This document shows, piece by piece, positions 1,797 through 36,657 of a stretch of 64,000 nucleotides of DNA (position 1 is its first letter; each line of letters begins with the position of its first letter). The position numbers and the translations under genes are program-made. The notes under the pieces were generated by a model. The model was not told where the DNA came from, ran no database searches, and saw nothing but the letters and a program-made list of their open reading frames with translations. The stretch is from NCBI GenBank assembly GCA_963763615.1, contig CAVXPI010000013.1, positions 718 to 64,717 of the forward strand. The letters are read 5' to 3'. The DNA is from Bryobacterales bacterium. GTDB taxonomy: Bacteria; Acidobacteriota; Terriglobia; Bryobacterales; Bryobacteraceae.

Positions 1797-4559
1797 TTCT
1801 TGCCGCAGAGTATTCAGAACTTTGGCGCCATCCCGGCCCAAACTGTGGGTATCCCGCTGACCCTCAACGCGACTGCCACTTCCGGCCTGACGGTAAGCTA
1901 TCAGTCCACAACGACTTCGGTCTGCACAGTCCCGGTAAGCACAGTGACATTCACAGCTCCCGGCCAGTGCAGCATTACTGCCGCGCAATCCGGCAACGCC
2001 AGCTACGCGGCCGCGCAGAGCATTATCCAGACCTTCACGGTTAACGCTGATGTGGCCGCCATTTCGAATATTCAGGCCGTCACAGTCGGCGGCAACTCCG
2101 AAGTCATCACTTGGACGACAGACCAGCCCTCCACAACGCAAGTCAACTACGGCGCCACCTCCAGTTACGGCTCCTCCTCTCCACTCGACAACAATCTAGT
2201 CACAAACCACTCAGTCACCCTGAGCAATCTAGTGCCTAATGCTACTTACAACTATGACGTTGTCTCCACAAACTCAATCAGCGGAACCGCGACTAGCACG
2301 AACTCCACCTTTGTCACTAAGCCATATGTTGGTTACCTTGCCTTCTGGGGAGTCAATAACTCAGGTGTCACCATCTCGTGGTCCACCGACGTACCGGCCA
2401 ATACCTTCGTTGCTTACGGCACCACCAACGCCTTGGGCCAGCTCAGTCCTGTCCAATCCGCGCTCACCAACAGCCACGGCGTCGTTCTCACCGGCCTGAA
2501 CCCCGGTACTACCTACTATTTCCGTGCCGAATCGACCACTGCTGGCGGCAGCACCGGTGGTTCAACCATCTACACCTTCACGACGACTGGCGTACCGGCC
2601 TCGCCCGCCCCCGTCATTACCAAGGTGGCCGTCACCAACATCACCACCACCTCGGCCACCATCTCCTGGATCACCGACCAGGCTGCTAGTTCGCAGGTCA
2701 ACTACGGAGCCACCACAGCCTATAGTTCTTCGTCGCCGCTGAACTCTAGCTTGGTGACCAGCCACGTCGTCAATCTCACCGGACTCACCCCCGGCACCAC
2801 TTACAACTACGACGTGATCTCGACCAACTCCTCCGGCACCTCCTCCGGCATGTCGACGAACTACACGTTTGCCACCACCGGTGTCATCGCCACACCGCCG
2901 GCGATCATGAACATCCAGGCCACGGTCACCAGCACGACGGCCACCATTACCTGGACCACCGATCAAGCCGCTAATTCGCAAGTCAAGTATGGTGCGACCA
3001 ACAGTTACGGCTCTGCCACCACACCGGACAGCAACTACGTCACCAGCCACTCCGTGACGCTGATCAACCTCACCCCCGGCACCACTTATAACTTTGCCGC
3101 TGTCTCTACCAACGCGGCAGCCCTGTCCACCACATCGCCGAATGGGACTTTCCTCACCACGGCTTCCAACGCCACCGCACCATACGTCGGCTATGTCGCT
3201 TTCTGGGGAATCAACAACTCCGGCGTCACCATCTCCTGGTCTACTGACGTGCCCGCCAACACGCAACTGGCTTACGGAACCACCCCGGCACTCGGCCAGT
3301 TCAGCCCGCTGCAGTCCACCCTCACCGCCAGCCACGGTGTGGTCCTTACAGGCTTGAACAGCGGAACGACTTACTACTTCCAGGCTCAATCCACCGGCGC
3401 CAACGGAGCCACCGGCTACTCCACCACCTATAGCTTCACCACCACCGGCTCACCGTCAGCCCCGGCGCCTGTCATCTCGAATATCCAGACCAGCGTCACC
3501 ACGAACTCCGCCACCATCACCTGGACCACCGATCAGGCCGCGTCTTCCCAGGTGAACTATGGAGTGACCACCACATACACCTCATCCTCCACTCTCTCCT
3601 CAACGCTGACAACATCACACTCGGTCACCCTGAATAACCTGATGCCAGGAACCACTTACAACTTCGACGTCATGTCTTCAAGCGTGGCGAACCTGTCCGC
3701 CACCTCGCCCAACGCGACCTTCCAGACCACCGGCTCGGCGCCGGGGCCGGTAATCAGTAAGGTAGCGGCCAGCAGCATCACCAGCAGCACGGCCCTGATC
3801 ACCTGGACTACCGACCAGGCGGCCAGTTCAGTGGTGAATTACGGAACCAGCAGCACCTCTGATCCAACGCTGGTAACGAGCCACTCTGTGATGCTCACCG
3901 GCCTGACGCCGAACACCGTGTACACGTTCAGTGTGACCTCCGCCAACGCAGCCAGCGTTTCCAGCACGTCGAGCAGCTACAACTTCACCACCTCCACACC
4001 AAGCGCTGGCGCGCCGGTCGTCTCGAGCGTGGCGTTCTGGGGTGTCACTGGTTCAGGAGTGATCATCTCCTGGTCTACCAACGTGCCGTCGAATACGTCA
4101 GTAGCCTTCGGCACCGCCGCCAACCAACTCAGTCAAACCAGTCCTGTACAAACAGCGCTAACGAACAGCCACGGAGTTACGCTTACCGGCCTCAGCCCTG
4201 GAACAGCTTATTACTTCCAGGCGCAATCCGCCGATGTGAACGGCAACACCGGCTACTCGACTATCTTTAGCTTTACGACGCTAGCCGGCCCGCCAACGAT
4301 CTCGGCTGTGACGGTTACACCGGCGGCGAACCACACGGCCACCATGAGCTGGACGACCTCCGCGCCGACGTACAGCTATGTGCAATACGGGCCAGCCGCC
4401 GGCGTGTACGGCCGCTACTCGCCTCAAACCAATCTGACCACCACTCCGCAATGCACGCTCGGCTATGTGCCCAGCGGCGTGAATCACTATCAACTCGTAA
4501 GCACCGATGCCAATGGCCATCAGGTGGTGTCACCAGACGCTACCTTTATTGAGCCGTAA
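1..4559 (+). CDS. Giant secreted/surface repeat protein, 5' end outside the window. It has about 5.5 Big_1/invasin-like Ig repeats, one Cys-pair Ig-like domain, and nine FN3-like modules.
   Basis: The frame is open from nt 3: TGASGTFGNGTATI precedes the first ATG at 45 and matches the repeat unit. The 108-aa units read ...TFTAP.TGASGTFSNGTATIMVPTNSSGIASAPFTANA...AVTVKDAANNPVSGVNV. Nine modules carry ITWTTDQ / ISWSTDVP / SWTTSAP ... (N/A/Q)YG ... TY(N/Y)(Y/F) signatures. Stop TAA is at 4557-4559. Confidence 0.85.
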   Translation, partial: TGASGTFGNGTATIMVPTNSLGIASAPFTANATAGGPYIVTAAAASLTTANFSLTNNPGVPATMTANAGTTPQSTTINTAFANTLAVTVKDAANNPVSGLNVRFTAPPTGASGTFSNGTATIMVPTNSSGIASAPFTANATAGGQYIVTASVPGLTPLNFSLTNIAGAAATMTANAGTTPQVIIVNIAFRNALAVTVKDAANNPVSGVNVTFTAPSTGASGTFGNGTATIMVPTDSLGIASAPFTANAIADRAFYTVTAAAAGLTTANFSLRNDSGAPATITANAGTTPQSTPINTAFPNALAVTMKDASNNPVMGFSVTFTAPSSGASGTFSNSTATIMVPTNSSGIASAPFTANATAGNPYIVTAAAAGLTTANFSLTNNPGAAATMTANAGTTPQSTPINTAFPNAPAVLVKDAANNPVSGVNVTFTAPSTGASGTFSNGTATIIVPTNSSGIAAAPFTANAAAGGQYIVTASAPGLTPLNFSLTNIAGAAATMTANAGTTPQSATIGTAFTNALAVTVKDASGNPVSGVTVAFSAPGSGGPSGTFSNNTGAISLPTNASGIASAVFTANANGGGPYNVTAAANSLSTPFSLTNNFLPQSIQNFGAIPAQTVGIPLTLNATATSGLTVSYQSTTTSVCTVPVSTVTFTAPGQCSITAAQSGNASYAAAQSIIQTFTVNADVAAISNIQAVTVGGNSEVITWTTDQPSTTQVNYGATSSYGSSSPLDNNLVTNHSVTLSNLVPNATYNYDVVSTNSISGTATSTNSTFVTKPYVGYLAFWGVNNSGVTISWSTDVPANTFVAYGTTNALGQLSPVQSALTNSHGVVLTGLNPGTTYYFRAESTTAGGSTGGSTIYTFTTTGVPASPAPVITKVAVTNITTTSATISWITDQAASSQVNYGATTAYSSSSPLNSSLVTSHVVNLTGLTPGTTYNYDVISTNSSGTSSGMSTNYTFATTGVIATPPAIMNIQATVTSTTATITWTTDQAANSQVKYGATNSYGSATTPDSNYVTSHSVTLINLTPGTTYNFAAVSTNAAALSTTSPNGTFLTTASNATAPYVGYVAFWGINNSGVTISWSTDVPANTQLAYGTTPALGQFSPLQSTLTASHGVVLTGLNSGTTYYFQAQSTGANGATGYSTTYSFTTTGSPSAPAPVISNIQTSVTTNSATITWTTDQAASSQVNYGVTTTYTSSSTLSSTLTTSHSVTLNNLMPGTTYNFDVMSSSVANLSATSPNATFQTTGSAPGPVISKVAASSITSSTALITWTTDQAASSVVNYGTSSTSDPTLVTSHSVMLTGLTPNTVYTFSVTSANAASVSSTSSSYNFTTSTPSAGAPVVSSVAFWGVTGSGVIISWSTNVPSNTSVAFGTAANQLSQTSPVQTALTNSHGVTLTGLSPGTAYYFQAQSADVNGNTGYSTIFSFTTLAGPPTISAVTVTPAANHTATMSWTTSAPTYSYVQYGPAAGVYGRYSPQTNLTTTPQCTLGYVPSGVNHYQLVSTDANGHQVVSPDATFIEP

Positions 4560-28964: not shown

Positions 28965-29426
28965 TCAGTCTGACCGGTTTTTTGCCTGCGCATTCACTTC
29001 CTCAACGAATTTTTCAAAAAACTTGCGAATCATCATCTTAGCGGTGGTATCGATCATACGCTGGCCCACAGCCGCGATGGTGCCGCCCACCTGCACGTCG
29101 CCATCGTAGGCTAGTTCGGTGCTGGTTTCGCTGGCGGGCGAGAGGGACATCAGCCCTTCGCCTTTTAGAAAGCCGACTTTGCCGCTGCCTTCCACCAGCA
29201 TTTTAAAGCTTTGCGGTGGACTGGCTTCGGTGATTTTGATTTTCCCGGTGAACAGGCCGGAGAACGCGGCCAACGCCAATTTCATCTTCATGGCGTATTC
29301 GTCTTCGCCGATTTTTTCCAAGGCATCGCAACCTGGCACACAGCGAGACAGAATCGCCGGGTCGTGCAAGTTTCGATACGTCTTTTCGCGGTCGAAGGGC
29401 AGTGTAGAGGAGCCGGAAATTTTCAA
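28965..29426 (-). CDS. CoxG-like SRPBCC protein.
   Basis: It reads MKISGSSTLPFDREKTYRNLHDPAILSRCVPGCDALEKIGEDEY..FTGKIKI. Its position at the end of the cox-like cluster fits. Confidence 0.8.
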   Translation of the reverse strand: MKISGSSTLPFDREKTYRNLHDPAILSRCVPGCDALEKIGEDEYAMKMKLALAAFSGLFTGKIKITEASPPQSFKMLVEGSGKVGFLKGEGLMSLSPASETSTELAYDGDVQVGGTIAAVGQRMIDTTAKMMIRKFFEKFVEEVNAQAKNRSD

Positions 29427-30268
29427 GCAATCCTCGCGAGCGCGGTGTTGATGGCGCGCTCTGTAATGACTTGCGCCAAATGCTTGCGATATTCCGCCGA
29501 GGCGTGAATGTCGGAATTGGCGTCCACTCCATCATTGACTAAAGCGGCAGCGTCGGCGGCGGATTTCCCGGCGACAAGCGCGTCTTCAACAGCGGTTGCG
29601 CGGAAGGCTTTAGAAGCGAGACCTGTTACGGCCACGCGGGCGAAAGTGATTTTAGCTCCGTCTTGCCGCACGCGGACAGCGATGCCCACTGTTGCGTAAC
29701 CGGAAGCCGGCTGAAACACTTTTTTATAACAAGTGCCGACCTTCGAATCGTCGACAGGCACTTGGATTTCCTGAATTAATTCGCCCGGTTCGAGAGAAGT
29801 GCTGAGGGCGTCGACGAATAAATCTTGGACATCCACCGTGCGAGAGCCTTTGCTGGAAGCCACCAGAAATTTGGCTTCGAGCGCGAGTAAAGCCGCCGGA
29901 TAGTCGGCGGAGGGATCGGCGTGTGCCGCTGCGCCGCCAAGCGTTCCGGAATTGCGGACTTGGACATCGCCAATGTTGGAGGCAGTTTCGGCGAGTAGCG
30001 GGCATTTGCCGCGCAAGACGGGCGAGCCTTCGAGGGCGTGGTGAGTAGCCATGGCCCCGATATGAACGGTGCCAGCGGATTCGGCAATCCCATCGAGTCC
30101 GGGAACGCCCGAAAGATCGACAAGCTTTTCAGGCGAGGCAAGGCGCAGCTTCATCATCGGGATGAGACTCATGCCGCCGGCAAGCGGTTTGGCCGAACCA
30201 TCGGCCAATTGCGTCAGGGCCTCGGCAAGGGAGGCCGGTTTGGAGTATTCGAAGCTATTGGCAATCAT
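29423..30268 (-). CDS. FAD-binding medium subunit (CoxM-like) of a xanthine-dehydrogenase-family enzyme.
   Basis: It has PLAGGMSLIPMMKLR and RNSGTLGGAAAHADP. A 4-nt overlap joins it to the coxG-like gene. Confidence 0.88.
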   Translation of the reverse strand: MIANSFEYSKPASLAEALTQLADGSAKPLAGGMSLIPMMKLRLASPEKLVDLSGVPGLDGIAESAGTVHIGAMATHHALEGSPVLRGKCPLLAETASNIGDVQVRNSGTLGGAAAHADPSADYPAALLALEAKFLVASSKGSRTVDVQDLFVDALSTSLEPGELIQEIQVPVDDSKVGTCYKKVFQPASGYATVGIAVRVRQDGAKITFARVAVTGLASKAFRATAVEDALVAGKSAADAAALVNDGVDANSDIHASAEYRKHLAQVITERAINTALARIA

Positions 30269-30269
30269 T

Positions 30270-32603
30270 TTATTGTTTGGCTCCCTGCATCACTTTCCAG
30301 AGGCTTTCCGGCGTCAAAGGCATGTCGAGATGCCGGACGCCGAGAGGGCTGAGTGCATCGACGATTGAATTGACAACCGCGGGCGTAGAGCCGATGGTGC
30401 CCGCTTCGCCCACGCCCTTCACGCCGAGTGGATTGACAGGCGACGGCGTAACCGTGTGGCCCGTTTCGATCCATGGCATCATGCTCGCTTTCGGAAAAGC
30501 GTAATCCATAAATTCGCCGGTGAGCAATTGGCCGCTTTCGTCGTAAACGGCTTGCTCCCAAAGAGCCTGGCCCATGCCTTGCGCGATGCCGCCGTGAATC
30601 TGGCCGTCTACGATGAGTGGATTCAGAATCTTACCGCAATCGTCAACGGCGACGTAGCGCGTGATCTGCACGTCGCCTGTTTCCTTGTCTACCTCCGACA
30701 CGACGATGTGACAGCCGAAAGGGAAACAGAAGTTGGAGGGCTCCCAGAAGTGAGTGACGGAGAGGCCAGGCTCGGTGTTGGGAGGTAGTTCCATGGCCCG
30801 ATAGGTGGCCCCGGCAATTTGCTGGATCGGGATCGTAGCGCCCGTTTTTAGACAAATGCAGTGGCCGCCTTCGAAGCTCACCTCTTCCGATTTGAGCAGC
30901 ATCTTGCCGTAGATTTTGATTTTGTCTTTGAGCTTTTGCAGCGCGTAGTAGAGAGCCGTGCCACCGACGGCCGTGCCGCGCGAACCGAAAGTGCCGATGC
31001 CGTACTGAACAATCGAGGTATCGCCATGCAACACGACTACGTCGTCGATGCCAACGCCCAATTCGTCTGCTGCGATTTGCGCGAAGGTGGTTTCTTCGCC
31101 TTGGCCGTGCGGTGATGCTCCCGTCATGACGGTAACTTTGCCCGATGGTTCGATGCGCACGGTGGCACTTTCCCAACCGCCGGCGGGTGTTGCGGCCGAA
31201 GGACCGAAAGCGCAGATTTCGCCGTAGGTAGCAATGCCGATGCCCATCAGCTTGCCTTGTCTCCGCGCTTCCGTTTGCACAGCGCGCAGATTTTTATAGT
31301 CGATGGTGTGCATGGCTTGATCGAGCGGCGCAGCATAGTTGCCTGAATCGTACGAAAGGCCGGTTCCGGTAGCGAACGGGAATTCTTCGTTGCGGATGAA
31401 GTTCTTGCGGCGGATTTCGGCCGGGTCCATTTTGAGTTCGGCGGCGAGAATATCCATCATGCGCTCGATGCCGTGAGTGGCTTCCGGGCCGCTGGCTCCA
31501 CGGTAGGCGTCAGTCGGCACGCAGTTCGTGAACGCACCCACGACATCGGCTTCAATGTTGTTGCAGCGGTACAAGCCCTGCATCATGAGCACGGTGAGCG
31601 TGGGAATCACTGGGCCGAGAAGCTGGTGATAGGATCCGAGATCTTGAATGATTTTGAGGCGGATGGCGGTGATTTCCCCGGTGTTCTTGGCGGCGACTTC
31701 GTAGTAATCCACTTGGCCACGGCCGTGGATAGTGCAGGTGAAGTTCTCGCGGCGCGACTCGATCCATTTCACCGGGCGGCCGAGTTTCATGGATACAAAA
31801 CCCATAAGCGCCTCTTCGGCGTAGACGTTCAGCTTGCTGCCGAAGCCGCCGCCGACTTCGGGCGCGACGATGCGCAGCTTATGTTCGCCAATGCCCAACA
31901 TCCCGGAGAGAAGGGTGCGGCAGAGGTGGGGAATCTGGGTGGACGTCCAGACAGTGAGAGCGCCGTCGCCACTTTTGTAATCGGCTACGACCGCACGGCC
32001 TTCCATGGCAGCGGGAATGAGGCGCTGCTGGACGATGCGCTGCTTTACAACGACCTCCGCTTCTTTGAAAGCCTTTTCAGGGTCGCCGCCTTTTTGTTGA
32101 TAGGTGAAGGCAACGTTATCGGGCCACTCGGGGTGAACGGGTGGAGCGCCCTTGGCCAAAGCTTTTTCGGGATCGGCCACGGCGGGCAGGGGATCGTAGT
32201 CCACTTCCACCGTGTCGGCTGCGTCACGGGCAATATAGCGGTCGATGGCAACGGCAACTGCTACTGGATGACCAACATAATAGACGCGGTCTTTGGCAAG
32301 AACGGTGTGATTGGGCGTGCGTAAACCCGGAAGGACTGCGCCGCAAGGCACGGGGCCGACGCCAACCGTGTCGGCAAACGTATAAACGGCGACGACACCG
32401 GGAATTTCGAGCGCGGCTTTGATATCGACGTTTTTAATTTTGGCGGCAGCGTGGGGGCTGCGCACAATACACGCGTGATACATGCCGGGCAGCTTCAAAT
32501 CGTCGACGTAAGTAGCAGTGCCAGTGATCAGCCGCGGATCTTCGCGGCGCTTGATGCGCTGGCCAACGAGGGGATCTGTTTTGGTGATGGTAGTGGTTCC
32601 CAT
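30270..32603 (-). CDS. Molybdopterin-binding large subunit (CoxL-like, non-form-I).
   Basis: It is 777 aa. GQRIKRREDPRLITG opens the N-terminus. The active-site loop reads ..PTDAYRGASGPEA.. rather than the VAYRCSFR loop I recall for form-I CO dehydrogenases. Confidence 0.88.
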   Translation of the reverse strand: MGTTTITKTDPLVGQRIKRREDPRLITGTATYVDDLKLPGMYHACIVRSPHAAAKIKNVDIKAALEIPGVVAVYTFADTVGVGPVPCGAVLPGLRTPNHTVLAKDRVYYVGHPVAVAVAIDRYIARDAADTVEVDYDPLPAVADPEKALAKGAPPVHPEWPDNVAFTYQQKGGDPEKAFKEAEVVVKQRIVQQRLIPAAMEGRAVVADYKSGDGALTVWTSTQIPHLCRTLLSGMLGIGEHKLRIVAPEVGGGFGSKLNVYAEEALMGFVSMKLGRPVKWIESRRENFTCTIHGRGQVDYYEVAAKNTGEITAIRLKIIQDLGSYHQLLGPVIPTLTVLMMQGLYRCNNIEADVVGAFTNCVPTDAYRGASGPEATHGIERMMDILAAELKMDPAEIRRKNFIRNEEFPFATGTGLSYDSGNYAAPLDQAMHTIDYKNLRAVQTEARRQGKLMGIGIATYGEICAFGPSAATPAGGWESATVRIEPSGKVTVMTGASPHGQGEETTFAQIAADELGVGIDDVVVLHGDTSIVQYGIGTFGSRGTAVGGTALYYALQKLKDKIKIYGKMLLKSEEVSFEGGHCICLKTGATIPIQQIAGATYRAMELPPNTEPGLSVTHFWEPSNFCFPFGCHIVVSEVDKETGDVQITRYVAVDDCGKILNPLIVDGQIHGGIAQGMGQALWEQAVYDESGQLLTGEFMDYAFPKASMMPWIETGHTVTPSPVNPLGVKGVGEAGTIGSTPAVVNSIVDALSPLGVRHLDMPLTPESLWKVMQGAKQ

Positions 32604-32621
32604 AATATTTGCCCCCTCTGG

Positions 32622-33107
32622 CTATGCTCTCTTCGCGGCTGCCTGCATTTGCGTTGCAGCGGTGCGGGCGGCATTCACAATATGTTGGTAGCCCGTGCAA
32701 CGGCAGAGATTGCCTTCGATACCGTGGCGAATCTCTTCGTCTGTGGGATTTGGGTTGCGGTCAAGCAACTGCTTCACGGCGATGATCATGCCAGGCGTGC
32801 AATAACCGCACTGGAGTCCATGCTCGGACCAGAAGGCGTCTTGCACAGGGTGATATTTGCCGTCTTGGGCGAGACCTTCGATGGTGGTGACGGATTTGCC
32901 GTTGGCCTGGACCGTGAACATGGCGCAGCTTTTGATGGCTTTGCCGTCTACCTCCACAGTGCAAGCGCCGCAAAGCGACGTTTCACAACCGATGTGCGCG
33001 CCGGTGAGGTTCATTTGCTCGCGCAAAAAATGGATGAGCAGGGTGCGTGGTTCCACTTCTTCTGTGACGGATTTGCCGTTGATGGTGAGGGTTACTTTCT
33101 GCTTCAT
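32622..33107 (-). CDS. [2Fe-2S] small subunit (CoxS-like).
   Basis: It has [15 protein letters not shown] and CGYCTPGMI...CRCTGY. ATG 33107 ([12 protein letters not shown]) is preferred over 33137. Confidence 0.9.
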
Positions 33108-33177
33108 TAGGTTCGCCTTGCTAGCGGTAATAAACATATCAAAAGTTGTGAGCTCGTGAGCGCGCCCAACAAAAAGC

Positions 33178-33206
33178 TTGACAAGATTGCCATTGGCATC
33201 TACCTT
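33178..33206 (+). promoter_or_regulatory. Candidate promoter giving a near-leaderless transcript of the 33214 gene.
   Basis: TTGACA (33178-33183), a 17-nt spacer containing the palindrome TGCCA-T-TGGCA, then TACCTT (33201-33206). The ATG is at 33214, only 7 nt after the -10 element. The -10 match is weak. Confidence 0.25.
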
Positions 33207-33213
33207 TGAGGCT

Positions 33214-33810
33214 ATGCCAGTGCCGTCTCAAAGCCTCGTTCTTAATGGACCCGAGTTCACAACCCGAGCCGCCAATTTCGCCCACCTTATGGCCACTCCG
33301 ACCTTCCAGAAGCAGTTTTTCGCCAACCCGTCGGCCGTAGCATCCCGAGAGTTCAACCTGAAAGTGCCCGCCAGCGCAGCCAGTAAGGCGAACGCCATGG
33401 TTTTTGCGCTGTTAGGCGACAAGAAATTCAATAGCTGGGCGAAAGAATTCCAGAAGGAAATTGACACCTCGTTCCATGGCATTTCCGGGGCGGCCAGTGT
33501 TTCCGACGCCCAGAAGGCCCTGAAATCGAAGCAGACGCGCGACCAACTGGTCGCCAAGTTCAACGCCTCCGTTGCCCATCAACTGTCTCCGGAAACGGCC
33601 GCCACGCTTGCCTCAATCAACAAGGGCCCATTAGTGTCCGAAGGAGATGTGGCCGTTATCTTACTCACGTTCGTGGTCGTGGTTGTGGTCGTCGCCATCG
33701 CCGCCGGGATCGCCAACCCCGCAGAACTGGTCTCCCGGCAGCAGGTGCAGCTCGTCGCCAGACAAATTACGGCATCGCAGGTAGCCCAAGTCCGCACAAA
33801 CCAGCGCTGA
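33214..33810 (+). CDS. Hypothetical helical protein with a single C-terminal TM segment (tail-anchored). No family recognised.
   Basis: It opens [15 protein letters not shown]. It contains ..[45 protein letters not shown].. and a C-terminal [22 protein letters not shown]. Its stop lies 6 nt before the radical SAM gene. Confidence 0.5.
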
Positions 33811-33816
33811 AGCTGA

Positions 33817-34863
33817 ATGGACATTCTCGATCCCATCCCTGAAATACGCGTTCTCTCGCTCCTGTTGACATTGCAGTGTACGGCTGAATGCTTGCATTGC
33901 GGCACGAACAGCAGCCCGCGCGTCAAGTCGCGATTGCCGGAAGCCACTGCTGCGCGTCTGATCGACGAGGCCGCGCAAGCTGAATATCAAGTGGTGGCGT
34001 TTACCGGTGGTGAGCCCCTTCTGTACGGCGAGCCGCTCTTCCGGTTGGTTCGCCAAGCCGCCGGACACGGTCTGACCACACGCGTTGTCAGTAATGCCTA
34101 TTGGGCGCGCACTCTGCAGGGTGCTTCCGCTATTGTGGCGTCTTTGTCCGGCGCTGGGCTTAAGGAAATAAACTTCTCGACGGGCGACCAGCACGCCCGT
34201 TTTGTTCCTATGGCCAACGTGATTCGCGCCGTCCGCGCTTCGCTCGACCACAAACTCAGAGTCGCTGTCATGATCGAAACCGTCAAGGAGCGATCTATCA
34301 CACGTGAGGCATTTCTGAACGATCCATTGTTCGTGGAGCTATTCGATAGCGCCGAGCGGGAAACGATCTACTTCTGCGAGAGTCCGTGGATGCCGCTGGA
34401 CCCACACCAACACCTCGAGTATCCGGATAACATGACTGTCACTGCCGGGAATATCGGGCAGTGTACCGGCTGCGATAGCGTTATCAATACCACTACCGTG
34501 CTGGCCGATGGGAGAGTGATGGCGTGCTGCGGGTTGGGAACGCAGCAGATTCCCGAATTGCAGCTAGGTAGAGTGGAGGACGGCAGTTTGACCCAGATGC
34601 GATCCCTTGCGGAAAACGACTTCCTTAAACGCTGGATTCGCTGCGAAGGACCCGAACGCATTCTGCAATGGGCGGCAACGAAAAACACGGCGATTGCGTG
34701 GGAGGGACTCTATGCACACCGCTGCCAGGCATGTGTCCGCTTGTATTCCGACGAAGCGGTTCGTACTGTAATCCGTGAGCAGTATGAAGAGAAGATTGTG
34801 GATGTCCTCGCTTCGGAGTGGCTGACCTACACTTATCCGCAGGCCCAATTGACCGAAGCGTAA
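33817..34863 (+). CDS. Radical SAM enzyme with a C-terminal Cys-rich (SPASM/twitch-like) extension.
   Basis: It has the CX3CX2C motif in LTLQCTAECLHCGT and the GGEPLL SAM-binding motif. The C-terminal cysteines lie in GQCTGCDSVINTTTVLADGRVMACCGLG and HRCQACVRLY. Confidence 0.82.
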   Translation: MDILDPIPEIRVLSLLLTLQCTAECLHCGTNSSPRVKSRLPEATAARLIDEAAQAEYQVVAFTGGEPLLYGEPLFRLVRQAAGHGLTTRVVSNAYWARTLQGASAIVASLSGAGLKEINFSTGDQHARFVPMANVIRAVRASLDHKLRVAVMIETVKERSITREAFLNDPLFVELFDSAERETIYFCESPWMPLDPHQHLEYPDNMTVTAGNIGQCTGCDSVINTTTVLADGRVMACCGLGTQQIPELQLGRVEDGSLTQMRSLAENDFLKRWIRCEGPERILQWAATKNTAIAWEGLYAHRCQACVRLYSDEAVRTVIREQYEEKIVDVLASEWLTYTYPQAQLTEA

Positions 34864-34977
34864 AGCCGTTCGGCGTGTCAATTTTCGGGGGAAGGTTGAC
34901 AGAATGGGTGAGGCAATATATGCTGGCGTTTGATTTGAGTCGTTTCAAAGCTTAAATCCACAGCGAATACCTGAATC

Positions 34978-36201: not shown

Positions 36202-36657
36202 ATGCGGCTTATTCCGGTGTTGATCTCCTGCGCGATGGTGGCGGCTGCTGCGGACAAACCCAAACTGCCCGATGGACCCGGCAAGGAGACGATGCAACGC
36301 GTTTGCAGCTCTTGCCATGGACCGGAGATTGTTTTAGGCAAAAAGCTAACGCGCGACGGCTGGAGCCAGATTGTGATGAACATGGTTCAGCGGGGCGCGC
36401 AGGGCACCGACGACGAGTTCGCGGATATTGTCGATTACTTGACCAACACGGTTTCCGTTGAAGCGGCCAAGATTAACGTGAACAAAGCGACGGCGAAACA
36501 ACTGCAGACGGGCCTGGACATTTCAGACAAAGACGCGGATGCGATTTTGCAGTATCGGACTGCGAACGGGGACTTCAAATCGATTGACGATTTGAAAAAG
36601 GTGCCGGGCCTGGACGCGGCTAAGATCGACGCAAAGAAGAGCAAGCTGGTTTTCTAG
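36202..36657 (+). CDS. Exported mono-heme cytochrome-c-like domain fused to a ComEA-type helix-hairpin-helix domain.
   Basis: It has a signal peptide and the CSSCH heme motif followed by ..RDGWSQIVMNMVQRGA... The C-terminal INVNKATAKQLQTGLDISDKDADAILQYRTANGDFKSIDDLKKVPGL is a ComEA-like HhH. Confidence 0.65.
   Translation: MRLIPVLISCAMVAAAADKPKLPDGPGKETMQRVCSSCHGPEIVLGKKLTRDGWSQIVMNMVQRGAQGTDDEFADIVDYLTNTVSVEAAKINVNKATAKQLQTGLDISDKDADAILQYRTANGDFKSIDDLKKVPGLDAAKIDAKKSKLVF

Follow-up and report, generated by a model that had tools for sequence, protein, structure and literature searches.

Radical S-adenosylmethionine (SAM) epimerases are, to our knowledge, the only known direct route by which D-amino acids enter ribosomal peptides, and we know of only two lineages that have been characterised, the PoyD-type enzymes and EpeE (YydG) of the Bacillota. 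In EpeE a single auxiliary cluster lies within an extended twitch ('T-SPASM') domain, and its Cys223 is the hydrogen-atom donor that completes the L-to-D inversion of Val and Ile (PMC5682303, PMC8326336, PMC13012085), which are also its natural targets (PMC8326336). Here we describe a pair of genes in a 64,000-nt stretch of contig CAVXPI010000013.1 from a Bryobacterales bacterium (assembly GCA_963763615.1; hereafter the window, to which all positions refer unless another locus is named). The pair encodes a 198-aa protein, called the partner below, and a radical SAM enzyme of 348 aa. A preliminary description, made from the sequence, had proposed that the two could form a protein-substrate/maturase pair of a type not yet described. 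Our analysis indicates that they are a real, conserved and mobile module and, with moderate confidence as regards the mechanism, that they follow the theme of a radical SAM epimerase and its precursor, with a substrate of protein size.

The enzyme resembles the peptide epimerase EpeE

Two open reading frames (ORFs) on the forward strand are separated by 6 nt, as had been noted, with the TGA stop of the partner gene at 33808–33810 and the ATG of the enzyme gene at 33817. The CX3CX2C motif that had been read in the enzyme (CTAECLHC) lies at residues 21–28 and is invariant in 28 diverse homologues, and Pfam matched the Radical_SAM and Fer4_12 families. The top NCBIfam model was that of the YydG peptide epimerase, TIGR04078 (62.9 bits, E=3.4e-17; 59.4 bits in the genome-wide search), which was colinear over residues 13–313. 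When a profile of the 28 homologues was compared with the PDB sequences, a strong match was obtained to YydG/EpeE only (8AI1/3/6, E=9e-19). The AlphaFold2 (AF2) model of the enzyme (predicted local distance difference test, pLDDT, of 89) gave a full-length superposition on EpeE in Foldseek, with template modelling (TM) scores of 0.69–0.72 (query) and 0.75–0.77 (target) over 332–336 columns for 8AI1–8AI6, and of 0.72/0.77 over 332 columns for 8AI4/8AI6; the next-best family, BlsE, reached 0.49. The sequence identity to EpeE is 17–19%, and a single-protein phmmer search aligned only the N-terminal half of the enzyme to 8AI1. Classification by hidden Markov models (HMMs), PDB sequences and fold thus gave YydG/EpeE as the best match in every case and placed the enzyme outside the cofactor and lipid biosynthesis families.

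The C-terminal cysteines had been likened to the auxiliary-cluster domains of SPASM-type maturases. The likeness to a radical SAM maturase is supported, whereas the assignment to SPASM is not: the Pfam SPASM model PF13186 scored 16.6 bits, below its cut-off of 21.5 bits, and the seven-Cys SPASM motif with CX2CX5CX3C is absent, only five C-terminal cysteines being conserved. The domain is of the twitch, or 'T-SPASM', type, probably with one cluster. In the 28 homologues the invariant cysteines are C21, C25, C28, C219, C237, C238, C303 and C306, so that most of the C-terminal cysteines picked out earlier are confirmed, whereas C216, the first Cys of CTGC, is not conserved. Alongside three of the invariant cysteines, G218 and S221 show no variation either, and position 220 is mostly Asp. 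The segment DGR..ACCGLG aligns, in a weak second stretch of the HMM alignment, with HDGEIYPCC of EpeE, in which chain residues C247–C248 are native C222–C223 (the native numbering was derived from the CX3CX2C motif at chain positions 39/43/46). The five conserved C-terminal cysteines therefore fit four cluster ligands and one catalytic thiol, and the enzyme would probably hold one auxiliary [4Fe-4S] cluster with C219, C237, C303 and C306 as ligands. Most of the remoter EpeE-like enzymes that were examined keep the signature C-x17-CC...CxxC. On present evidence the enzyme appears to be EpeE-like in its working, yet not a member of the YydG family. The GTDB family to which Bacillus sp. V3B belongs, searched in 200 genomes, yielded no true YydG gene.

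Some other assignments were considered. A glycyl-radical activase, as in the Joint Genome Institute (JGI) label 'organic radical activating enzyme', was rejected because the enzyme has the EpeE fold and a C-terminal Cys domain and lacks a glycyl-radical partner. There was no PoyD-like family among the NCBIfam matches listed, the enzyme being of the EpeE type with C-terminal Cys ligands. In PADLOC 2.0 only the generic radical SAM core (residues 14–95) touched the pVip models, at 27–37 bits, and viperin folds gave TM scores of at most 0.46 against the enzyme model. A defence system or phage gene was rejected as well, since there was no specific PADLOC or PHROG family and no phage record.

Partner and enzyme genes occur together across phyla

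We examined the neighbourhoods of related enzymes (at least 37% identical) on contigs that were long enough. A partner gene adjoins the enzyme gene in 24 of 24 such loci, which include the present locus and two near-identical places in Bacillus, so that the tight coupling of the pair noted earlier is a conserved property. The loci span the Actinomycetota, Bacillota, Alpha-, Beta- and Gammaproteobacteria, Bacteroidota, Deinococcota and Bathyarchaeota. A gene of 190–350 aa without any Pfam match lies directly upstream of the enzyme gene in Streptomyces, Duganella and the Bacillus cereus group, and an upstream partner is also found in Methylococcaceae, Bacillus sp., Kibdelosporangium, Flavobacteriales, Sphaerisporangium, two Bathyarchaeota, Bacteroidota, Aestuariivirga and Rhodospirillales. 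Further loci come from Roseiarcus, Amycolatopsis, metagenome contigs, a Streptomyces canus plasmid, Thermus aquaticus pTA14 and three soil contigs. The upstream genes of these loci are homologous (alignment A2). Overlaps of 1–8 nt between the stop and start of the two genes are common, and three loci (L009, L012 and L100) have two partner paralogues for one enzyme. An all-against-all comparison of the flanking ORFs in 14 loci found no third common gene; only the partner and enzyme families were shared. For both genes the ratio of nonsynonymous to synonymous substitution rates (dN/dS) was 0.05–0.10, which means strong purifying selection. Because of these values and the synteny conserved across phyla, the pairing is, by such measures, far beyond chance.

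At a threshold of E≤1e-3, a full HMMER scan for the partner family recovered 518 representative clusters; at E≤1e-10 the number was 366. A word-index search gave at least 342 clusters for the enzyme clade. The word-index search finds only close or seed-like relatives of the partner, so that the full HMMER scan was needed. In reciprocal scans from the partner side, profiles A2 and A5 were too divergent to serve as seeds, a single-protein scan reached close relatives only, and a reciprocal synteny scan with the partner profile A6 found nothing. An 'F..DP' likeness in ORFs upstream of distant EpeE-like enzymes (L015–L017) was dropped, because the partner HMM gave no match in L015–L084 at E≤1.

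Several relatives have further genes beside the pair. On pTA14 of T. aquaticus Y51MC23 (L127, NZ_CP010823.1, 2271–7270), a helix-turn-helix (HTH) gene is followed by genes for a 301-aa partner with a twin-arginine translocation (Tat) lipoprotein signal, the radical SAM enzyme, an SdpI-family protein (PF13630, E=1e-15), an MTS/PrmA-like methyltransferase and a hydrolase of the beta-lactamase fold (serine); the operon resembles a polytheonamide-style pathway built on an EpeE-type enzyme. A CPBP/Rce1-like gene lies near the pair in Roseiarcus. In a sister clade, represented by Lactococcus lactis plasmid p001F (L129, 3823–9473) and an Eleftheria terrae plasmid (L130, 3236–7150), the enzymes are 29–35% identical and have the same Cys signature; the neighbouring proteins again have V/A-rich stretches, yet no detectable homology to the partner. 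The Lactococcus locus adds a C1 peptidase and an ATP-binding cassette (ABC) ATPase, and the 368-aa neighbour in Eleftheria has a Tat signal and the motif RRFHRDPGGYL.

The pair forms a mobile cassette

The source genome has one copy of each gene, and a search of 80 related genomes (48 species from its genus and 32 from its order) did not find the partner in any. Against the closest, cassette-less relative (G027), homology resumes at 34902, approximately 40 nt past the enzyme stop codon. In four independent close relatives of the cassette (L097 and L131–L133; 74–92% nucleotide identity), homology is confined to approximately 33163–34876 and the neighbourhoods are unrelated, with the right junction within approximately 15 nt of the enzyme stop codon. 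One of these cassettes sits in an island with ParE, HigB/Gp49-HTH and RHS fragments; other copies lie beside ParD/TacA antitoxins, in a Bacillus conjugative element or on plasmids. The cassette was found in 6 of 72,556 plasmid records and in none of 50,697 phage records, and no repeats, recombinase or other mobile-element signatures were found at its borders. Judged from these borders and contexts, the 1.7-kb region of approximately 33163–34876 is a self-contained, horizontally mobile module of two genes.

A promoter of the form TTGACA-17-TACCTT had been suggested upstream of the pair, and this arrangement is indeed present: TTGACA occupies 33178–33183 and TACCTT, after a 17-nt spacer, 33201–33206, followed by 7 nt and the ATG at 33214. 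The −10 hexamer TACCTT matches the consensus at three of six positions, and a promoter scanner makes no call there. In the four close-relative cassettes, CTTGACAA is invariant approximately 15 nt inside the left junction, a TAnnnT hexamer lies 17 nt downstream, and the ATG follows 7–10 nt beyond the hexamer. The promoter thus appears to travel together with the two genes. Its geometry would give a leaderless or near-leaderless mRNA, a reading made plausible by the lack of variation in the TTGACA box of four diverged cassettes. The 'TTG start' further upstream, at 33178, is in fact the putative −35 box, and the ATG-started 198-aa form of the partner is called in all close homologues.

The cox-like operon on the left flank of the cassette (28965–33137) is strain-specific as well: three close genomes of the genus gave no CoxL orthologue at E≤1e-100. 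The cassette therefore occupies the right-hand end of a longer strain-specific block. A decayed cassette was also found in a metagenome contig (L135, Ga0193753_10002539, approximately 3024–3504), in which the segment equivalent to 33359–33440 is joined directly to that of 34444–34844, so that most of the partner gene and the first two thirds of the enzyme gene have been deleted.

The partner has a conserved layout with a variable middle segment

In keeping with the earlier remark that this protein of about 198 aa shows no recognisable motif, the partner matched no family in Pfam, NCBIfam, PADLOC or PHROGs. The stretches of its sequence that had been quoted earlier were found in it as given. 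It contains one Trp, no Tyr and no Cys. Across the family, F35, P39 and N60 are invariant or nearly so, and the C-terminal helix keeps the pattern [ST][RP]..[LV]..[LI]..[QE]L whatever the middle segment; in this partner a conserved GPLVSEGD precedes the Val/Ile/Ala-rich segment. The AlphaFold model of the partner has a pLDDT of 54 and draws the Val stretch as a helix at low confidence; a Foldseek search with it returned meaningless matches (best E 1.5).

The helical N-terminal part had been called loosely reminiscent of the long leader domains of ribosomally synthesised, post-translationally modified peptides (RiPPs). The F..F..[DN]P motif (residues 29–46) makes weak contact with models of the nitrile hydratase leader peptide (NHLP) clan in 4 of 14 members (E 0.005–0.06), namely with NF038399 in three (E ~0.05) and with TIGR04509 in one (E 0.0045), all far below the cut-offs. 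An hhalign comparison with 11 genuine NHLP precursors of related genomes covered 30 columns with P=0.0014 and a probability of only 17%, which is not significant. We call the resemblance of the partner to NHLP precursors no more than suggestive.

True NHLP precursors occur elsewhere in the genus. Same-genus genomes (G035:C6:567791–570596; G008:C16:73579–76272; loci L102, L118, L126, L103 and L119) have three or four of them in a cluster, scoring 64–79 bits against a cut-off of 50.9 bits. After Gly-Gly, these proteusin-like candidates have hydrophobic cores rich in Val, Ala, Thr and Gly that end in Trp. In the source genome itself there are only sub-threshold NHLP matches, in longer ORFs (271 aa).

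To characterise the middle segment, which had been read as a single transmembrane helix, 151 representatives of the partner family were compared with 832 hydrophobic windows of the source genome. A strongly hydrophobic stretch is present in 122 representatives and missing from 29, and N-terminal Tat signals occur in 20 (~13%; 13 with the stretch and 7 without). The stretches contain 36% Val and 9% Leu, against 16% and 23% in the control windows, and 9.3 V+I per 19 residues, against 5.2 (p ~2e-56); D or E occurs inside 52% of them, against 12% of the controls. The partner described here has 11 V+I in its best 19-residue window, a value reached by just 0.6% of the hydrophobic windows of its own genome. 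The V/I/T and A/G positions follow a period-2 order (z of −8 to −10 at lag 1 and +4.5 to +6.8 at lag 2), whereas in the control windows the order is that of an alpha-helix, lag 4 being enriched and lag 2 depleted. Large subfamilies keep specific end motifs, V.VE.ET[FY].YAVA... and ...TQID.TP; one non-hydrophobic class has the conserved polar segment NNAAGT..TPV..PSTSDQS..SSQNFNG.GFG, and in the Thermus member Asn stands at every second position over approximately 37 residues of the middle segment. In the lineage of the present cassette, the middle segment has the lowest dN/dS of the partner protein (0.018, against L131). The composition and the period-2 pattern are unlike those of ordinary transmembrane helices, and some members have polar segments instead, so that the earlier reading needs amending. 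These patterns suggest that the middle segment is more likely a modified 'core' than a mere anchor.

Some members carry long repeats rich in proline that separate the Val-rich stretch from the C-terminal helix, (PPPxC)n in Roseiarcus (L098, 4937–6001) and (PGPD)n in L100 (4819–5838 and 6920–8053). The partner genes of L100 flank the enzyme gene on both sides.

A possible mechanism and its alternatives

We propose that the two genes encode a RiPP-like pair in which the enzyme would epimerise Val and Ile residues in the middle segment of the partner, a proposal to which we give an even chance. We regard it as likely that the partner is the substrate of the enzyme; for C-alpha epimerisation as the reaction the odds seem to us balanced, and the Val-rich segment is named as the modification site tentatively, with slightly less than even confidence. 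[quoted passage not shown] The substrate would consist of a helical N-domain with the NHLP-leader-like motif, a class-specific middle segment and the conserved C-terminal helix. In the cytoplasm, the enzyme would turn some L-Val and L-Ile residues of the middle segment into D-residues, and the modified protein would then pass to or through the membrane, by way of Tat in the ~13% of members with a Tat signal; these Tat-signal variants imply that modification precedes export. C-alpha epimerisation is the most economical proposal because of the invariant thiol at the position of the hydrogen donor, the Val/Ile-rich target and the EpeE fold. Since 98 of the 151 partners (65%), including this one, have no Cys, and since this one has a single Trp and no Tyr, thioethers and the usual aromatic crosslinks are not the common reaction. 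A sacti- or ranthipeptide synthase was rejected for the same lack of Cys.

Several points weigh against this proposal. The N-domain and the C-terminal helix are conserved more widely than the middle segment, so that the modified site could lie there, and in this lineage the middle segment is a plain Val run, drawn by AlphaFold as a helix (pLDDT 54). In some members the Pro-rich spacers after the stretch agree with a true membrane-spanning arrangement. Since the members are related, the statistics on composition and periodicity exaggerate their independence, and a single genome served as the control. On the side of the enzyme, the 62.9 bits on TIGR04078 are far under the curated equivalog cut-off of 300 bits, and the equivalence of C238 and Cys223 comes from a weak local profile alignment and a global fold match, not from a residue-level superposition. 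The hhalign comparison with NHLP precursors was not significant, as mentioned above, and, in contrast to the known RiPP toxin loci, the cassette lacks a protease, an exporter and an immunity gene. In addition, epimerisation leaves no trace in a sequence, and the proposal rests on sequence and models.

The same enzyme–substrate pair might perform another chemistry, in which the radical left by hydrogen abstraction at C-alpha or C-beta would end in a C–C or C–O crosslink, dehydrogenation, hydroxylation or backbone cleavage, in the middle segment or in the region of F35, P39 and N60. EpeE-like and twitch/SPASM enzymes are chemically versatile, and the C223A mutant of EpeE leads to peptide breakage (PMC8326336); the low identity to EpeE, the score far under the YydG cut-off, and the polar and Asn-alternating middle segments, which are not Val/Ile-rich, all point in this direction. 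However, the CC pair with the candidate hydrogen donor is invariant, which an epimerase needs and a crosslinker does not, and the residues usual for crosslinks are missing, so that we consider another chemistry unlikely. We find it improbable that the partner is not the substrate at all, and instead a membrane-anchored accessory (a tether, chaperone or regulator) of an enzyme that acts on some other protein, a lipid or a small molecule. The hydrophobic stretch could then be a tail anchor, and the N-domain and C-helix could be docking surfaces; there is no protease for the release of a product, and the Pro-rich spacers resemble envelope-spanning linkers. Against such a role, partners are duplicated for one enzyme, Tat-exported and non-hydrophobic variants cannot tether a cytoplasmic enzyme, the composition and periodicity of the stretch are not those of a transmembrane helix, and the closest fold is that of a peptide-binding enzyme. 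The module also moves alone into unrelated contexts, so that any other substrate would need to be universal.

The biological role may be separated from the chemistry. The pair could be a two-gene conflict module, for example a bacteriocin-like toxin, an abortive infection system or an addiction system, in which the enzyme would mature or arm a membrane-disrupting protein; this is compatible with epimerisation. The extremely patchy distribution (0 of 80 relatives), the ParE, HigB/Gp49-HTH and RHS islands, the ParD/TacA neighbours, and the locations on plasmids and in the Bacillus conjugative element would fit such a module, as would the SdpI-family neighbour in Thermus and the CPBP/Rce1-like gene in Roseiarcus, and the known product of EpeE is a membrane-active cannibalism toxin (PMC7026026). 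Nevertheless, there is no PADLOC family beyond the generic radical SAM core match, the cassette is absent from the phage records, and without an immunity or export gene in the minimal cassette self-intoxication would need explaining; as an explanation of the pair, we think a conflict module has a small chance of being right. As for the product, the Thermus, Roseiarcus and Lactococcus neighbours and the island and plasmid contexts make us lean towards a membrane-active, conflict-related one.

If epimerisation of the middle segment is indeed the reaction, it could go further. It is conceivable, with a probability that we put low, that the enzyme processively inverts every second residue of the period-2 segment (Val/Ile-Ala, or Asn-X in Thermus), which would give an alternating L/D beta-helix. 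If this were true, the product would be a gramicidin- or polytheonamide-like, genetically encoded and protein-borne ion channel or membrane-piercing element. Its evolution would have been independent of the PoyD/proteusin route, and it would be spreading among bacteria and archaea in the form of a minimal two-gene cassette.

Features and neighbouring genes

The coordinates of the features are given in Table 1. As had been described, the pair is divergent from the cox-like operon, of which coxS, on the minus strand, starts at 33137. Downstream of the pair are genes for a cupin/ManA-like protein and then for a cytochrome c-ComEA fusion, which are conserved in relatives without the cassette; no protease, transporter or immunity gene is adjacent, again in agreement with the earlier account. 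The best sigma-70-like site of the region (TTGACA-17-TATGCT, 10 of 12 positions) is at 34896–34924, just upstream of the 404-aa cupin/ManA-like gene, and coincides with the point where homology to the cassette-less relatives resumes. The fusion protein (36202–36657, 151 aa) consists of a CBB3-type cytochrome c domain and a ComEA-type helix-hairpin-helix domain (Pfam and NCBIfam matches), and its gene adjoins the ManA-like gene in the closest relative too.

Table 1. Features of the two-gene cassette (positions in the window)
Feature	Position	Strand	Basis
Left cassette end with promoter-like element	33163..33213	+	Homology to L097 and L131-L133 begins here; upstream DNA unrelated
Partner, putative substrate, 198 aa, no Cys	33214..33810	+	ORF; dN/dS 0.075-0.079
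NHLP-leader-like motif in helical N-domain (residues 19-48)	33268..33357	+	Alignments A2/A3; sub-threshold NF038399 and TIGR04509
Val/Ile/Ala-rich middle segment (residues 146-167), proposed modified 'core'	33649..33714	+	Composition, periodicity, dN/dS
Conserved C-terminal amphipathic helix (residues 172-193), possible follower/recognition element	33727..33792	+	Family pattern
EpeE/YydG-fold radical SAM enzyme, 348 aa	33817..34863	+	TIGR04078, PDB profile match, AF2 model, Foldseek
CX3CX2C radical SAM cluster motif (C21, C25, C28)	33877..33900	+	Invariant in 28 diverse homologues
C219 ... C237-C238 (GC[DNT]S ... DGR..ACCGLG), predicted auxiliary-cluster ligands and candidate H-atom donor	34471..34530	+	Homologue alignment
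C303-x2-C306 (HRCQAC), predicted remaining auxiliary-cluster ligands	34723..34734	+	Invariant; CxxC kept in sister clades
Right cassette end	34864..34876	+	Homology to L097 stops ~13 nt past stop codon

Novelty and comparison with known systems

No description of the pair was found in the searchable literature on YydG/EpeE, T-SPASM, homologues of epipeptides and genome mining for radical SAM epimerases, and the NCBI names are only 'radical SAM protein' and 'hypothetical protein'. The suggestion that the pair had not yet been described is thus supported as far as Pfam, NCBIfam, PADLOC, PHROGs and this literature are concerned. With at least 342 clusters for the enzyme and 518 for the partner, from bacteria as well as archaea, the cassette would add a large EpeE-like clade of wide phylogenetic range. 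Its substrate would be a complete protein that combines a new leader-like domain with a follower helix and a highly unusual alternating core rich in Val. The cassette would escape standard RiPP miners, which search for short precursors and for proteases or transporters encoded beside them. For peptide engineering it could be a source of new epimerase specificities, and it might also provide a membrane-active protein of a new kind. Because the module has only two genes and its own putative promoter, the pair can be tested directly by co-expression.

Among the known systems, EpeX/EpeE (YydF/YydG) of Bacillus subtilis, encoded by epeXEPAB, has the same enzyme fold including the one-cluster 'T-SPASM' domain, the CX3CX2C motif, a CC pair aligning with C222-C223, and a precursor gene directly upstream, where the cassette has a precursor-like one. 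Its known targets, Val and Ile, and its membrane-active product may also be counted as likenesses. It differs in that the enzymes are only 17–19% identical, with 62.9 bits against the 300-bit cut-off, and in that the putative substrate here is 190–350 aa instead of 49 aa; its N-domain is unrelated, and a conserved C-terminal helix follows the putative core. As its candidate core it has a stretch of 20–30 Val, Ala and Ile residues and not two isolated residues. Moreover, the cassette and its conserved borders include neither an EpeP protease nor an EpeAB ABC transporter, and it occurs in many phyla including archaea, whereas EpeX/EpeE is known from the Bacillota only.

The proteusins (polytheonamide, aeronamide and landornamide, with PoyD-type epimerases) share a large, structured, leader-like N-domain with a short NHLP-like motif, and cores, hydrophobic or rich in Asn, whose period-2 order would accommodate an alternating L/D pattern; in the Thermus relative there is also a methyltransferase, as in polytheonamide clusters. 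However, the putative epimerase of the cassette is EpeE-type, with a predicted auxiliary cluster and no RiPP recognition element (RRE), and not PoyD-type, with a single cluster plus an RRE at the C-terminus. A conserved C-terminal helix follows the core, the hhalign probability for NHLP is the 17% given above, and the minimal cassette has no further tailoring enzymes. The maturases anSME/AtsB of sulfatases and QhpD, which acts on QhpC of quinohemoprotein amine dehydrogenase, belong to other clades with other chemistry (formylglycine and thioethers), their substrates are enzymes of known function, and they are not two-gene mobile modules. They nevertheless resemble the present pair in that a cytoplasmic twitch/SPASM-type enzyme acts on a protein-sized substrate that is then exported, and the partners with a Tat signal would fit this order of modification followed by export.

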